Shown piece after piece: positions 8,681 through 12,913 of a stretch of 32,000 nt of DNA. The position numbers and the translations under genes were made by a program. Source of the DNA: Oscillatoria salina IIICB1 (GTDB lineage Bacteria; Cyanobacteriota; Cyanobacteriia; Cyanobacteriales; SIO1D9). The stretch covers positions 8,784-40,783 of the forward strand of contig NZ_JAAHBQ010000024.1 in NCBI RefSeq assembly GCF_020144665.1. The letters run 5' to 3'. How positions within the stretch are numbered: the first letter of the stretch is position 1; every line of letters begins with the position of its first letter. The notes under the pieces are model-generated. The model saw nothing but the letters and a program-made list of their open reading frames with translations. It had not been told where the DNA came from and did not search any database.

Positions 8681-10114
8681 TTACTTATCCTTCCTTTCTG
8701 GTAAAGGAACTTCCATAATTTCCATCAACAACTCCAAACGAGATGGACGAGATAACAACGGAATTAAATTCGGCAAGGAATAGTAATCCCCCGCAAAAGT
8801 GAAAGTATCTACCTGCACCTGTCTTTCTTGCAATTTTGTCTCCATCCAGTCATAAGAAACACCGACTTTGACAATTACAACATTCGGCTGAACTTGCAAT
8901 TCCTGACAATAAGCATCGAAAGCCACCCCAAAATAAGGCGCAGTATTTTCACCTTGGTCAGTTACTAGGATAATCTGCTCAACTGCCTGCTTTCTCAAGC
9001 GCATCGCCTCAACGCTACAGCCGATACTGGTTGCACCGCCAGCGCTGACATGACGAAAAGCTTTTTCCCAGTCACTCAAGTTGTTACCAGCAGCTTTTAC
9101 CGGGTAAGGCATCGTATCGAAAGCATAAACAAACAAATCTGCCTCCGCAACCCCAGAAATCAAAGCAGCAATTTGCTTACCAATTTCGATCGCGCTTTCC
9201 ATTGAGCTAGACTTATCTACAAGTAAAGCAGTGGGCTTTTTAATTGAGCCGCGCTTTTTCACTTGTTCGTCCATCACTCGTTCCAGTTTTGCCGCCGTTT
9301 CTGCATCCAACTGGGTAACATCAGCCGCAACGCGACTTTTTAACGCAGAGACGCGCTTATCAGACTGCGCTTGTTCTAACTTTTCGTCGATTAATTTCTT
9401 CACTTGCGCGTGTTCCATCGCCCCTCGCTTTTGCAGCGACTTCAGGTTATTAATTACCTCTTGGGGTGACATAGAATTAATCAACGCAACCATTACAGTT
9501 GGTGTCATTTGCTTGACAGCACCGATAGCAATAGTGTAAGGAATCTTTTGTTCGACGATCGCTTTTGCCTGTTCGGTAGGAGATTTCGCCTTAGCTAACT
9601 GCTTCAGTTGAAAACTCAAGCTATCCGCAGGTGGCTTATCCTTAAACAAAACCGCATCAGCACGCGCACCGGGCTTAATATGCAGCGTAGCATACAAGTG
9701 TTTCATCGCCTTACGACCTCGGAGCGCCGCGCGATCGAAAAATTCCGGGTTTGCTTCGCGCTTCTCTAAATAGCGGCGGACAGCAGTACGCGCAGAACGT
9801 GGTACTTTATTTCTGTGAACCTTCATAAAGTCCACAATTCGGGCTACCTGATAAGGAGGAAATTCCTGCAAAACTACGAAACCCGCATCCCGGTGTTCCT
9901 CCAAACCGCTAGTCAGCAAATTACCGATAAACACTTCTTTATGGTCGCGCACATCGCCGTTACGCTGATACCATACCGCCAAATGTCCATAAAAAATGGG
10001 GTCAAGTTCCACCATCATTTGATGTAATTCTGCTACTTCTTCCAGCTTGCGGTGAGGTGTAGTTAGCAAGCTGTTGAGCATTTCTAAGCGTAAGTCACGT
10101 TCTGCTGTATTCAT
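8681..10114 (-). CDS. rsr: TROVE + vWA protein (Ro60/Rsr-like RNA-binding protein), N-terminally shorter than canonical Ro60
   Basis: '[20 protein letters not shown]' parallels the Ro60 TROVE motif 'YKQRNGWSHKDLLRLSHL'. The C-terminal vWA domain has a MIDAS '[10 protein letters not shown]' (DxSxS), 'AGGATSIG', '[10 protein letters not shown]' and '[20 protein letters not shown]', collinear with the human Ro60 vWA (VDVSASM / AGGTDCS / FTDNET / CGFDTGALDVIRNF). GGAGGT lies 6 nt upstream of the ATG at 10114. Confidence 0.8.
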
Positions 10115-10121
10115 CTTTTTA

Positions 10122-10157
10122 CCTCCAAAATAATTAATATTTGAGCTTTCTTGGAGG
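10122..10157 (-). promoter_or_regulatory. Possible SD-sequestering hairpin in the rsr-like 5' leader
   Basis: Minus-strand RNA ...CCUCCAA(10157-10151)-22 nt A/U-rich loop-UUGGAGG(10128-10122)UAAAAAGAUG. The 7-bp stem pairs the Shine-Dalgarno GGAGG with an upstream anti-SD. Confidence 0.35.
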
Positions 10158-10200
10158 CAAATGTCGTCACCTATTACGAACTAAATATTCTGCTGATTTG

Positions 10201-10253
10201 CCGCGCAAGTTCAAGAAACTTTGCTAACAACATTTCTACTGATTAGGGCGCGA
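10201..10253 (-). ncRNA. Y-RNA-like module a: minimal hairpin with no apical insert
   Basis: Minus-strand RNA 5'-CGCGCCCUAAUCAGUAGAAAUGUUGUUAGCAAAGUUUCUUGAACUUGCGCG-3'. It has the same conserved arms (CGCGCCCUAAUC / AACUUGCGCG) as the larger modules, closed by a ~12-nt loop. Confidence 0.5.
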
Positions 10254-10283
10254 CGACAACTGCCAAAATTATGTAATTTGGTC

Positions 10284-10407
10284 ACTTCGCGCAAGTCAGG
10301 AAAGCTGTTGTTCACACACGGGATTTGAACCCGCAAATGATGGAATCTAAATCCATTGCCTTTTCCATTTGGCTAGTATGTAAGCTTCCCTGGTTAGGGC
10401 GCGAAGT
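10284..10407 (-). ncRNA. Y-RNA-like module b: conserved stem plus a normally ordered tRNA-like insert (anticodon-loop UAG)
   Basis: Terminal helix ACUUCGCGC/GCGCGAAGU. Second helix CAGGGAAGCU/AGCUUUCCUG. Insert: D arm GCC-AAAUGGAAAA-GGC, anticodon arm AUGGA-UUUAGAU-UCCAU, T arm GCGGG-UUCAAAU-CCCGU. Confidence 0.65.
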
Positions 10408-10528
10408 AAAATCAAATTCGGTTGATTAACTAAGTAAAGTTCCGAAACGTTCTAAGCTCAGTTTCGTAAGCTAGATTATCTAAATGATTGTCGATTATTC
10501 ACATTTTAGCTAATTTTTTTAAGCTCAT

Positions 10529-10712
10529 TTTCGCACAAGTTAAAAAAGCTGTCTTAACTTTACGCCCGTCGTACACCAGCTTTCACTAGCACTGGACACG
10601 CAAACTTCTTCTCGTTAGAGAGTGGGAATGATATCGCTAATTCGGTCGCCCGAATATCGCTACCTTAGGAGCGTTATTTTAGTTTGTAAGCTTTTTCGGT
10701 TGGGGTGCGAAA
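10529..10712 (-). ncRNA. Y-RNA-like module c: conserved stem plus a ~140-nt insert resembling 23S rRNA domain IV (H69-H71 region)
   Basis: Terminal helix UUUCGCAC/GUGCGAAA. The insert contains AUAACGCUCCUAAGGUAGCGAUAUUC (complement of 10652-10677). From memory, this matches E. coli 23S AUAACGGUCCUAAGGUAGCGAAAUUC at 24 of 26 positions. A UUCGG-GCGA-CCGAA GNRA hairpin follows. Confidence 0.6.
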
Positions 10713-10804
10713 TAACTCCTTTTTTTAGTTAGTCTTTTCTTCTTTCGTATCCTTCATTTAAAAAATTGGCTATTTCGACCAAAAATAAGTTGGAAAATAA
10801 TTAC

Positions 10805-10924
10805 TTCACGCAAGTTGAAAAAGCTGTTGTTTTATACACAGGAGTCGAACCTGTTACTCTCTGCTTATGAGTCAGATGCTCTACCAATGAGCTAGTATGT
10901 AAGCTTCTTCGGTTAGGGCGCGAA
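10805..10924 (-). ncRNA. Y-RNA-like module d: conserved stem plus a normally ordered tRNA-like insert (anticodon-loop CAU)
   Basis: Terminal helix UUCGCGC/GCGUGAA (one G-U pair). Insert: D arm GCUC-AUUGGUA-GAGC, anticodon arm UCUGA-CUCAUAA-GCAGA, T arm ACAGG-UUCGACU-CCUGU. Confidence 0.65.
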
Positions 10925-11114
10925 TTAAATTTCATTTTTTAGATAACAATCGATTTTGTTTTCATTTCTTCTAGTTTTATTGAAGTTTTTGGGTTTATTT
11001 ACAAATGAGTGAGGCAAGATAAGTTATCTACAAACTCAACTTTTTCTTTGCTTTTAGTTAAACTGAGATTATTCTCAGAATGACCAGGAAAACAAACGAA
11101 TTTTAAATGGTTAG

Positions 11115-11781: not shown

Positions 11782-11900
11782 TTCGCGCAAGTTGAAAAAG
11801 CTGTTGTGTTATACAGGGGAATCGAACCCCTATCACCTGGTTAATAGCCAGTTGCTCTACCAATGAGCTAGTATGTAAGCTTTATCGGTTGGGGCGCGAA
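11782..11900 (-). ncRNA. Y-RNA-like module f: conserved stem plus a normally ordered tRNA-like insert (anticodon-loop AUU)
   Basis: Terminal helix UUCGCGC/GCGCGAA. Insert: D arm GCUC-AUUGGUA-GAGC (identical to module d), anticodon arm CUGG-CUAUUAA-CCAG, T arm AGGGG-UUCGAUU-CCCCU. Confidence 0.65.
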
Positions 11901-11927
11901 TTAACTCGCATGAAGCAAGAAGTTTTT

Positions 11928-12205
11928 GCTAAAATTGATGGAGATTTTTGGCTTTGCTCAGAATGACATTTTTGAGTTTTTTGGTAGTAGCTAAAATTGA
12001 TGGAGATTCTACTCCTACTCGCTTCGCGAGAAGCTTCGCAACGGAGAACGCTACGCGAACGCTTCGCTCAGAATGACAACTTTGAATTTTTTTGAGTTTT
12101 AGCTATGGAGATTCTATTCCTACTCGCTTCGCGAGAAGCTTCGCAACGGAGAACGCTACGCGAACGCTTTGCTCAGAATGACATTTTTGACTTTTTTGGT
12201 AGTAA
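11928..12205. repeat. Three tandem copies of a ~60-110 nt unit; copies 2 and 3 carry a ~52-nt GC-rich miniature element absent from copy 1
   Basis: Copies start at 11928, 11990 and 12102 (GCTA(AAATTGA)TGGAGATT...GCTCAGAATGACA...TTTTGG). Copies 2 and 3 contain CTACTCCTACTCGCTTCGCGAGAAGCTTCGCAACGGAGAACGCTACGCGAAC, where copy 1 has only TTTG. Confidence 0.8.
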
Positions 12206-12256
12206 CTAACATCTATAGTAATAGGAGATGATTTGTGACAAGATTTAATTTTCTGG

Positions 12257-12286
12257 TGTAGAGACGTTGCGTGCAACGTCTCTACA
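12257..12286. repeat. Perfect 14-bp-arm palindrome TGTAGAGACGTTGC-GT-GCAACGTCTCTACA (dispersed cyanobacterial palindromic element type)
   Basis: Read directly. Its translation gives the 'VETLHATSLH' string in the spurious ORF 12103-12297. A truncated relative (TGTAGAGAG...CTCTCTACA) occurs at 26588-26617. Confidence 0.85.
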
Positions 12287-12321
12287 AACAATGACATTTT
12301 TGGTCATAGTTTTAATGTTGA

Positions 12322-12471
12322 TTCCGCACAAGTTAAAAAAGCTGTTTTTACATTTGACGCTCTATCCTTTGAGCTACAACGGCTTAAAATGCCGTTGGTA
12401 GGACTCGAACCTACAACCTCCCGTTTAGCAGACGGAAAATGTTTGTATGCTTCCTCGGTTGGGGTACGGAA
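12322..12471 (-). ncRNA. Y-RNA-like module g: conserved stem plus a circularly permuted tRNA-like insert (YrlA-type)
   Basis: Terminal helix UUCCGUAC/GUGCGGAA (one G-U pair). Connector ACAUUU/AAAUGU. Insert order: hairpin CCGU-CUGCUAA-ACGG, T arm GUAGG-UUCGAGU-CCUAC, acceptor 3' strand CAACGGC, AUUUUAA loop, acceptor 5' strand GCCGUUG (perfect 7 bp), UA, D arm GCUC-AAAGGAUA-GAGC. Confidence 0.7.
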
Positions 12472-12551
12472 ATTAAACTTTTTACTGGTTAAAAAAGATT
12501 GAGAGTAAGCTTGATTTTTTTAGATCTTGCTATCTAAAATTTGGGCTTAAT

Positions 12552-12752
12552 TTAACCATAAACTGCTTCGGGACGGACGATCAAATCGCCACTTGGTCGT
12601 CTGTCAACGACGTATTCAGTAAAACGATTTGTGTGAACGTCCAAATATTGTGCGAGACGGTCTTTAATTTGAGTGTCGCTCATGTTATTTTTTAGGCGAA
12701 GTTGGTTTTCGCTGAGGTCGTAGGAGCGACCCTCGAAACGAATGTGAACCAT
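12552..12752 (-). CDS. Conserved-looking 66-aa protein of unknown function (possible beta-grasp-like fold, C-terminal Gly)
   Basis: ATG at 12752 with GGAGGT 7 nt upstream and a near-consensus promoter ~130 nt upstream. Sequence '[66 protein letters not shown]'. The fold suggestion comes only from the strand-strand-helix-strand pattern. Confidence 0.6.
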
Positions 12753-12884
12753 ATTGTTACCTCCATAACTGCTTTTTGGTTAAAATAGAGCAGTTTTTTG
12801 GTTATGAGATTGTTTGCTTGATAAAACTTTGATTTATTTTTGCTTGTGGTGGTTTTCAGCTTGTTTGCTTGTGCCACTAAATTT

Positions 12885-12913
12885 ATACTACATAAATAAT
12901 ACAAGAGTGTCAA
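12885..12913 (-). promoter_or_regulatory. Sigma-70-type promoter on the minus strand (TTGACA - 17 nt - TAGTAT)
   Basis: Minus strand: TTGACA is the complement of 12908-12913, the spacer is 17 nt, and TAGTAT is the complement of 12885-12890. It points toward the 66-aa ORF and the RNA array. Confidence 0.5.

Follow-up and report, generated by a model that had tools for sequence, protein, structure and literature searches.

The question raised by the locus considered here is what a bacterium might do with a whole series of different small RNAs encoded just ahead of a single Ro60-like protein. The locus lies in a 32-kb stretch of the genome of the cyanobacterium Oscillatoria salina (the whole of this stretch being termed the window), where a gene encoding a 477-aa Ro60-like protein is preceded, on the same minus strand, by seven modules resembling bacterial Y RNAs. 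An earlier reading of these letters, termed here the original prediction, had proposed a gene of the Ro60/TROVE-vWA type together with an unusually large array of Y-RNA-like units. As argued below, the locus is most readily understood, with a probability of about 80%, as an operon for a Ro60-type ribonucleoprotein (RNP) in which a stem shared by all of the RNAs would serve for docking, while their variable heads would serve as interchangeable adaptors.

Ro60 is known to bind Y RNAs on the outside of its ring, through the bulged stem in which their 5' and 3' ends pair, while bacterial Y RNAs are encoded on the same strand as rsr and within 4 kb of that gene; the heads of such RNAs tether effectors such as PNPase, with YrlA mimicking tRNA (PMC4201824, 10.1101/312249, PMC12135203). 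In the window, seven units, labeled a to g in order of their distance from the Ro60-like gene, were found on the minus strand between positions 10200 and 12470, all presenting the arms YCGYRCCCYAAY... and ...ACUUGYGYGR. The 5' motif CGYRCCCYAAYC is matched seven times in the window, as compared to the 0.01 matches expected from shuffling, in each case on the minus strand (12468, 11898, 11251, 10922, 10709, 10403, and 10252). The 3' motif ACTTGYGYG likewise gave seven minus-strand matches in the array interval, where 0.84 were expected, as well as one unrelated match on the plus strand. When folded to minimum free energy (MFE), each unit yielded a terminal and a second helix, separated by an asymmetric internal loop, along with a variable head, and comparison with shuffled sequences returned energy z-scores of -2.25 to -4.44 for the six units of up to 150 nt (i.e., all but unit c). 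The stem so defined has a terminal helix of 7-10 bp, a bulge (CCY), pairs of the type AA:UU, an internal loop whose end is ACUUG, and, as its second helix, AAGCU/AGCUU. As such, the number of units, their strand, their common arms and their anatomy were all correctly described in the original prediction.

To place these units in a wider context, 29 genomic loci encoding relatives of the 477-aa protein were fetched (designated L and a number), providing 30 sources together with the window; in most of the 29, similar arms recur ahead of the gene. The arms of 58 units from 14 of these sources aligned cleanly using MAFFT, and this alignment served as the basis of a covariance model, R1. Applied to the window, R1 returned exactly seven matches, all on the minus strand and within the array; a stem at 23284-23403 that had been picked up by a first, crude scanner is not confirmed by the model and is regarded as a false positive. 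The structure tested for covariation consisted of 19 pairs, namely, those of the terminal helix, two A:U pairs and those of the second helix. Across the 58 units, 91.4% of the cells form standard pairs, versus 33-47% when the 3' partners are slid by one to three columns. Changes on both sides were noted in 13 of the 19 pairs, and none of 500 shuffles reached the observed values. Moreover, RNAalifold returned both helices from the alignment alone. The terminal helix mostly runs two to three pairs past the seven that were modeled, with pairing of ~70-77% at these positions, as opposed to ~30-50% farther out. G-U pairs are frequent in the alignment and therefore fit transcription of the minus strand, that is, the strand of the gene, as had been proposed earlier. 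Thus, the long stem of Y RNAs, built of the 5' and 3' ends and interrupted by an internal loop or bulge, was recovered by MFE folding, covariation and RNAalifold, and the seven units lie upstream of the gene in the same orientation, at distances of 85-2360 nt that are within the ~4 kb seen for Y RNAs and Ro60 genes.

A repeated unit with a tRNA-derived head could also be a dispersed mobile element, similar to a miniature inverted-repeat transposable element or a short interspersed nuclear element, that has piled up at this locus, the more so as unrelated small repeats are present in the spacers. The spacer between units g and f (11928-12212 and 12257-12286), for instance, holds ~2.5 tandem copies of a repeat of ~105 nt, two of which (12000-12092 and 12105-12197) are 95% identical, as well as an inverted repeat of 14 bp, perfectly matched (TGTAGAGACGTTGC/GCAACGTCTCTACA); they probably represent small repeat elements of cyanobacteria. 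Such an origin for the units, however, is contradicted by their distribution. No further copy exists in the window, and the 119 units that R1 detected in the 30 sources are all on the strand of the gene and, with the exception of two in an acidobacterial locus (L026), all upstream of it. A metagenome collection was also scanned with the RNA 5'-arm pattern alone, yielding 105 stretches, and R1 recognized at least 298 units in the 80 metagenome loci listed, with up to 11 in one contig (L099). Among these contigs, chosen by RNA motif alone, 29 of the 34 with at least 1.5 kb of sequence downstream of the last motif presented a Ro60-like gene on the same strand, while a conserved 66-aa open reading frame (ORF), addressed below, was found on the same strand in 42 of the 52 with at least 600 nt upstream. 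The RNA motif had no match in IMG/VR. Because most RNA-selected contigs with enough flanking sequence carry the gene downstream or the 66-aa ORF upstream, and because the motif is absent from IMG/VR, the units are not considered to be a dispersed repeat; nor would such a repeat account for helices preserved by compensatory changes or for classes of head that are conserved across genera. The scattered, unlinked copies predicted by a mobile element were accordingly not encountered, and this explanation, now largely refuted, is hardly credible.

The RNA family is instead tightly linked, in same-strand orientation, to the protein family and the 66-aa ORF, both in cyanobacteria and in two other phyla. 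Within the cyanobacteria, the system is widespread among filamentous and pleurocapsalean forms, with further occurrences in Acidobacteriota and Planctomycetota. Arrays of 4-11 units per locus are normal in this clade, such that the seven units of the window are ordinary by this measure. The earlier assertion of an unusually large array is thus valid with respect to described systems, where 355 YrlAs were listed in 276 genomes (PMC4201824), and fails with respect to the clade itself, where individual loci reach 9-11 units. In L026, two units lie downstream of the Ro60-like gene (7703-7813 and 7897-8015) and two upstream; therefore, the position of the array is not fixed outside the cyanobacteria. 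In the metagenomic locus L045, the 66-aa ORF and a five-unit array are followed by two ORFs of no assigned function and then by the tRNA-modification gene mnmG, with no Ro60-like gene appearing in the 5 kb downstream (876-1994; 3950-5872).

The 477-aa protein (8681-10114, minus strand) consists of a HEAT-repeat (TROVE-type) ring at the N terminus and, at the C terminus, a vWA domain with a MIDAS (metal-ion-dependent adhesion site) motif. It is 100% identical to an NCBI entry from Oscillatoria salina that is named only "vWA domain-containing protein." A Pfam search provided nothing beyond a sub-threshold vWA match, NCBIfam returned nothing for this protein, and a single-sequence search of Protein Data Bank (PDB) sequences gave as its sole significant match the Ro60 homolog of Thermus phage phiLo, with a weak E-value of 0.002. 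A profile built on 57 diverse members of the family was considerably more informative when compared with PDB sequences, retrieving human Ro60 (6e-17), the phage protein phiRo60 (8e-15; positions 23-393), Xenopus Ro60 (1e-12) and Deinococcus radiodurans Rsr (2e-8), after which only generic vWA domains were found. The AlphaFold2 (AF2) model of the 477-aa protein is of high predicted local distance difference test score (pLDDT; 92.4). When this model was compared with PDB structures by Foldseek, the top 13 matches were all Ro60 or Rsr, each over full length (~480-540 aligned columns) with template modeling (TM) scores of 0.60-0.68, and were followed by isolated vWA domains. Of the MIDAS residues, those of the DxSxS motif (D300, S302, and S304) as well as D386 show no variation across the 57 sequences and T362 almost none, and the Pfam vWA_Ro60 model matches 15 of the 57, at best with an E-value of 4.8e-9. 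Since the family profile, the AF2 model and the Foldseek matches agree, the 477-aa protein is, as modeled, of the Ro60 fold and a remote homolog of Ro60/Rsr. It belongs to a family of 1,019 clusters (50% identity), a clade whose Ro60 nature goes unrecognized in domain databases.

While the stem is common to all units, the heads are not. Two of the heads correspond to permuted tRNA mimics of the YrlA type. In unit e (11115-11253, minus strand; R1 score 74.2 bits), a T arm, a closed acceptor-like stem-loop and a D arm follow in this order, while in unit g (12323-12470, minus strand; R1 score 79.8 bits; fold z-score -3.0), an anticodon-like arm precedes the T arm, the closed acceptor-like stem and the D arm. 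The arrangement that defines YrlA, i.e., T and D arms on either side of a closed acceptor-like stem, is thus present in both, whereas the heads of units a and c are not tRNA-like. In agreement, the Rfam model for YrlA (RF02553) matched unit e over its full length (37.8 bits; E = 4.8e-6) and unit g in part (32.1 bits), in both cases below the gathering score, and did not match the other five units (a, b, c, d, and f). Run at gathering thresholds, Rfam reported only three "tRNAs," with use of E-values adding the two weak YrlA matches and noise (Dianthovirus and snoRNA families). The comparison with Rfam that had been suggested with the original prediction delivered sub-threshold YrlA matches for units e and g, without the gathering score being reached; assignment of the units as Y RNAs is favored by their architecture, their orientation on the strand of the gene and their covariation, together with these two matches.

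Unit c (10530-10711, minus strand; Y-like stem and head, 182 nt; R1 score 61.5 bits) carries a different kind of mimic. In its head, the segment AUAACGCUCCUAAGGUAGCGAUAUUC resembles helix 69/70 of 23S rRNA, with blastn against the Escherichia coli rrnH operon aligning 26 nt to 23S positions 1916-1941 at 92% identity. In at least 10 other loci, orthologs of unit c match positions 1909-1941 of E. coli 23S rRNA over 22-33 nt at 90-100% identity, a region that corresponds to the loop and 3' strand of helix 69 leading into helix 70. Within the rrn operon, an nhmmer profile of the unit c class matched 23S positions 1912-1941 only (E = 3.7e-7). A further likeness of unit c to positions 1942-2010 was also considered but is not statistically detectable. 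Among 363 distinct units, no other rRNA region was matched, with T-arm similarity to tRNA-Asp being the sole addition to 23S positions 1909-1941.

The remaining long heads, those of unit b (10286-10405, minus strand; R1 score 95.8 bits), unit d (10805-10924, minus strand; R1 score 98.9 bits), and unit f (11782-11900, minus strand; R1 score 89.4 bits), are full, four-arm tRNA cloverleaves in normal order, the acceptor stem of which runs into the Y-like stem. They differ in the type of D arm, which is AGCCAAAUGG in unit b and AGCUCA in units d and f, and in the anticodon loop, which offers UAG in b, CAU in d, and AUU in f, the last not being a natural decoding anticodon. Standard tools accordingly call tRNA-Leu(UAG), tRNA-Met(CAU), and tRNA-Asn(AUU) at 10310-10382, 10829-10901, and 11808-11878 on the minus strand, respectively. 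These cloverleaves, the 23S-like head and the 66-aa ORF had not been part of the original prediction.

Could the array then be an ordinary cluster of tRNA genes, in which the leaders and trailers of b, d, and f pair by chance and RNase P and RNase Z release functional tRNAs? The three modules score 49.0, 47.5, and 49.1 bits (b, d, and f, respectively) with the Rfam tRNA model (RF00005), well above its gathering score of 29, and Aragorn assigns them as Leu(tag), Met(cat), and Asn(att). They further contain the nucleotides required for the L shape (U8, A14, G18G19, and a T loop of UUCGAnU), a likeness to class II tRNAs is seen in related modules whose anticodon is UGA or UAA and whose variable arm is long, and YrlA of Mycobacterium smegmatis is indeed cleaved by RNase P (PMC4201824). 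Their acceptor stems, however, speak otherwise. All normal-order modules have UACAUAC as their 5' strand regardless of the anticodon, with pairs 2 and 3 being mismatched. They do not encode CCA (as is also true of many bacterial tRNA genes), and their 3' strand extends into helix 2, such that neither a 7-bp acceptor stem specific to the isoacceptor and compatible with processing and charging nor a free NCCA end was found. Moreover, some copies contain G33 or the unnatural anticodons AUU, AUG, and UUA, and an identical stem also frames heads that are not tRNA-like. A role as a simple tRNA cluster is hence very improbable, and the three "tRNA genes" of the window are almost certainly not tRNAs. 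Given that standard tools call units b, d, and f as tRNAs, the annotations of these cyanobacterial genomes probably list spurious tRNA genes.

The anticodon loops of these modules merit separate consideration. The AGCCAAAUGG-type module, as in unit b, retains UAG in 14 of 25 distinct copies, with this version being kept in at least 10 loci. The AGCUCA-type module of units d and f, by contrast, displays at least 18 anticodons, including UUA, AUU, and AUG, in 63 distinct copies, all on a retained scaffold, and is often duplicated with different anticodons, as in the window (d and f) or in L017, where three such modules are found. In six copies from Coleofasciculus, 12 of 120 columns are variable, three of which are contiguous at anticodon-loop nucleotides 33-35 (GUA, GGA, and UGA); when only the anticodon triplet is considered, two of three columns vary, as compared with 10 of the other 117 (Fisher p = 0.026, from a small sample). 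These patterns in the sequences are suggestive of selection acting on the anticodon loop.

Because the anticodon is variable, a decoy function offers an attractive alternative. Here, the array would be a library of baits, with the heads standing in as targets for those toxins of phages or competitors that are directed at RNA (anticodon nucleases and ribotoxins, for example). The ring would soak up or sense the attack, with the cleaved or bound bait altering the ring, its vWA domain or the 66-aa partner. The scaffold retained below changing anticodons, the contiguous variable columns of Coleofasciculus and the duplicated modules with differing anticodons are all what such a library would display. 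Anticodon loops and domain IV of 23S rRNA are known targets of nucleases, and the rsr-yrlBA-rtcBA operon of Salmonella reportedly responds to tRNA damage. At the same time, no match to PADLOC was obtained among six proteins encoded in the locus or flanking it, nor to PHROG for any locus protein, no nuclease, protease or pore-protein effector is conserved in the operon and the genes flanking it in the window are housekeeping or signaling genes rather than a defense island. In addition, the statistics on hypervariability derive from small samples, and unit c is without a UUCCU site, which we take to be the target of MazF-mt6. Overall, the bait library is the less probable account, albeit one with a real chance of being correct.

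Unit a (10200-10254, minus strand) stands apart in being a short, 55-nt module found 85 nt upstream of the start codon. It includes the terminal helix, CCCUAA and ACUUG, with the head being reduced to a small hairpin, and is the weakest of the R1 matches (27 bits; E = 7e-4; fold z-score -2.47). Most related loci have a short, gene-proximal unit of this sort, and L003, L008, and L024 have no other. Given this recurrent placement and the lack of a terminator between unit a and the gene, the array, or at least unit a, might be a cis-regulatory element, namely, an operator in the 5' leader of the mRNA through which the Ro60-like protein controls its own translation. Such a role would, however, leave unexplained the 4-11 elaborate heads of other units that are conserved by class across genera, as well as the downstream units of L026 and those arrays that are separated from the gene by ORFs. 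As an account of the array, autoregulation is doubtful; it could nonetheless hold for unit a alone, alongside the adaptor function proposed for the others.

At the head of the operon lies the conserved 66-aa ORF (12552-12752, minus strand), preceded by a GGAGG ribosome-binding site. In 20 of the 30 sources, this ORF is directly upstream of the first unit, and it is still recognizable, at 45% identity, in the loci from Acidobacteriota (L026) and Planctomycetota (L029). Its N terminus (MVHxRFEGRS) and C terminus (RPEAVYG) are invariant, and its 917 homologs are nearly all unnamed or "hypothetical," with none containing a Pfam domain. The AF2 model (pLDDT 88) predicts a beta-beta-alpha-beta-beta topology for which no significant match to a PDB fold or sequence was obtained, with ubiquitin-like proteins appearing weakly and non-significantly. 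Together with a second gene located within the array (see below), this ORF, just upstream of it, contradicts the earlier description of the stretch as nearly ORF-free.

Upstream of the 66-aa ORF, a promoter-like site, TTGACA-17-TAGTAT, is found at 12885-12913 on the minus strand. Read from 12913 to 12885, it is the best match (10/12) to a sigma-70-like consensus in the interval 8300-13100, where the totals of promoter-like and terminator-like sites are at chance level. Overlapping the spacer and the -10 element is a direct repeat, TGTATTAT (12903-12896) and TGTAGTAT (12892-12885), of the form TGTA(G/T)TAT-N3-TGTAGTAT. The arrangement CCCTTGAC...TGTAGTAT..TGTAGTAT recurs upstream of the 66-aa ORF in L001, L004, L009, L010, and L023, and more loosely in L002, while another group of loci shares TATCATTTAGAGCGGCG at this position. 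Conserved as it is across several genera, the direct repeat looks like an operator for a regulator. Because this upstream promoter motif is conserved across genera, and because no terminator-like site was detected on the minus strand within the array, it is plausible that one regulated promoter feeds a polycistronic transcript that is subsequently processed.

Comparison with described systems serves to define what is familiar and what is not. The closest known relative is Rsr with YrlA and YrlB, as in Salmonella Typhimurium and Mycobacterium smegmatis, where the protein is likewise a ring with the Ro60 fold and a vWA domain, and its gene has RNAs encoded just upstream on the same strand. As in the units considered here, the 5' and 3' ends of YrlA form a closing stem that is interrupted by an asymmetric internal loop and has ACUUG in its 3' strand (AaAcUuG-helix in the YrlA consensus), and the order of T arm, closed acceptor-like stem and D arm seen in the heads of e and g is also that of YrlA. 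The differences are nonetheless substantial. The present protein is too divergent for Pfam TROVE; the units carry a conserved CGCGCCCUAAC with a 3-nt CCY bulge in place of the CGAA/GNCGAA element; there are 4-11 RNAs per locus here as opposed to ~1.3; cloverleaf heads of normal order with anticodon arms and a copy of 23S helix 69/70 are added to the array; and the operon is headed by the conserved 66-aa ORF and has no adjacent rtcBA.

Other systems are more distant. The Rsr-Yrn1-PNPase machinery of Deinococcus radiodurans (RYPER) also involves several small RNAs encoded upstream of the rsr gene and, with a Y RNA that tethers the ring to an effector, provides the mechanistic template for the adaptor model; however, Yrn1 contains a T-arm-like element rather than a complete copy of a tRNA or rRNA, and the promoters and regulators are unrelated. 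In Thermus phage phiLo, a divergent Ro60, phiRo60, is similarly accompanied by RNAs encoded upstream, Yrl1 and Yrl2 (PDB 9KOP and 9L5Y; PMC12135203). This protein is among the best fold matches of the 477-aa protein (TM score 0.68), yet is phage-borne and comes with two RNAs that contain the CGAA motif. Metazoan Ro60 (Xenopus, 1YVP; human, 9NEN) is of the same protein fold. The helix of metazoan hY1 is presumably similar as well, with a terminal helix ending in C, a bulged C, purine-A/UU, and ACUUG on the 3' strand. Metazoan Y RNAs, however, present one bulged C rather than three nucleotides and GA rather than AA, and their genes are single, transcribed by RNA polymerase III and free of tRNA or rRNA mimics. 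Finally, while b, d, and f pass the gathering score and contain all four arms of bona fide tRNA genes, they differ from these in their uniform, mismatched acceptor stem that continues into a helix, in their lack of CCA and in the aberrant anticodon loops of many copies, and from tRNA gene clusters in having a frame that is common to heads that are not tRNA-like. The RNAs of the present locus are thus far more numerous and of more kinds than in any described Ro60/Y-RNA system. The literature searched contains no description of such arrays, although some units of the e and g types may already be among the listed YrlAs.

In the model that we infer for the function, expression and binding of the locus products, the operon would begin with the promoter, followed by the gene for the 66-aa protein, the seven Y-RNA-like genes and the gene for the Ro60-like ring protein. 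Co-transcription of the RNAs would start at the promoter ahead of the 66-aa ORF, with excision following. Docking would take place through the common stem on the outer face of the Ro60-like ring, in the manner of known Ro60/Y-RNA complexes, whereas the variable heads would act as interchangeable adaptors, bringing proteins that recognize tRNA or helix 69/70 to the ring. Modification enzymes, nucleases, repair enzymes and possibly ribosomal subunits are candidates for such recruitment. Alternatively, the heads might present RNA bound to the ring to such proteins as a surrogate substrate. In either case, the system would amount to a multi-headed Rsr/YrlA machinery aimed at the translation apparatus.

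Several observations count against this adaptor operon. At the level of the protein, the claim of a Ro60/TROVE-vWA product is borne out by the family profile and the predicted fold and not by Pfam, since TROVE (PF05731) was unmatched at E <= 0.01 in the 477-aa protein and in all 57 family members; identity to the solved Ro60 structures is, moreover, only 13-16%. At the level of the RNA, the YrlA scores of the units are far below the gathering score of 69 bits, and the two A:U pairs (AA:UU) are without support from covariation because they are nearly invariant. CGAA, or GNCGAAN0-1G, is the 5'-strand motif of canonical Y RNAs (PMC4201824, PMC12135203), and this motif, which defines Ro60-binding sites, is not conserved in the units: CCGA(A/U/G) is found in units c, d, f, and g of the window only, and columns 13-18 of the 58-unit alignment, corresponding to the CGAA region, vary and covary as ordinary stem pairs, with the conserved element being instead CGCGCCCYAAC and its 3-nt bulge. 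Because the CGAA/GNCGAA columns behave as ordinary pairs, the mode of docking on the ring may differ from that of canonical Ro60. As to linkage, 5 of the 34 RNA-selected contigs, such as L045, are without a Ro60-like gene in the available sequence. Lastly, the adaptor function itself is proposed solely by analogy.

If the locus were instead to serve in defense, it is conceivable, if unlikely, that it encodes a Ro60-based surveillance device that displays surrogates of translation RNAs on a common handle, so as to detect or absorb attack on tRNA and the ribosome by toxins of phages or competitors. The library on display would then perhaps be composed of tRNAs in which the anticodon diversifies rapidly, of permuted tRNAs and of a 23S helix 69/70 copy, joined in some genera by a paralog of ribosomal protein L7/L12. 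In such a device, the 66-aa protein might, again with low probability, be the signaling partner of the vWA/MIDAS domain.

The neighborhood of the array contains a number of further genes. ORF159 (159 aa; 11269-11748, minus strand), situated between units f and e, belongs to a widespread family with 316 homologs of 50-60% identity in Planctomycetes, Chloroflexi, and Acidobacteriota; it has no Pfam match, and its best PDB sequence match is not significant (E = 0.58). The sister Oscillatoria locus L001 is the one related locus to contain it, and elsewhere the family is not found beside Ro60-like genes. Being unlinked to Ro60 loci elsewhere, ORF159 is regarded as a passenger gene. Six related loci, not including the window, contain within their arrays a divergent, same-strand paralog of L7/L12 (L020, 4787-5173; L022, 4824-5210; L006, 5275-5664; L027, 5215-5604; L008, 23-412; and L018, 4138-4377). 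Both Pfam L12 domains are matched (1e-24), the full-length copies are 36-40% identical to the E. coli protein and the hinge is atypical. The presence of this paralog fits the proposed focus on the translation apparatus. Two additional same-strand families of proteins, of ~245 aa and ~145-165 aa, are encoded in arrays (L020, 3777-4514 and 5182-5619), with orthologs in L018, L019, L021, L022, L009, L012, L023, and L045; neither has a Pfam match or significant relatives among PDB sequences.

Downstream of the Ro60-like gene, the window encodes a stand-alone vWA protein of 272 aa (7400-8218, minus strand), as is also the case in L017 (4981-5799), L020 (7519-8331), and L024 (7883-8665). In L017, this gene lies between two Ro60-like paralogs (3222-4658 and 6001-7434). 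A DUF433 protein of 104 aa is encoded on the plus strand (8327-8641), just downstream of the Ro60-like gene, an arrangement shared only with L001. On the other side, a Dcm-type cytosine-5 DNA methylase gene (13005-14261, plus strand) is divergently adjacent to the operon, and such a gene is also found upstream of the Ro60-like gene in L001, L003, L015, and L016; L003, L015, and L016 each contain a single RNA unit and no 66-aa ORF. When the Ro60-like protein, the 66-aa ORF, ORF159, and the flanking ORFs were searched against Pfam, NCBIfam, PADLOC, and PHROGs, weak vWA matches were the only informative result.

Known bacterial Ro60 cases involve one or two RNAs, and a large clade has so far been missed because domain databases do not recognize Ro60 in it. 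The loci of this clade constitute a natural experiment, in which one handle is combined with many defined heads. The heads themselves name candidate partners, namely, readers of anticodon loops, of the tRNA elbow or of 23S helix 69/70, while the hypervariable anticodon points to selection on the loop and the conserved 66-aa protein may offer a handle on the MIDAS site of Ro60. Should the surveillance device prove to be real, it would represent a new class of RNA-bait immunity and would give bacterial Y RNAs a function. With its breadth, its diverse and defined heads and its small, conserved ORF, the system offers a promising route to the role of the bacterial Ro60 RNP.

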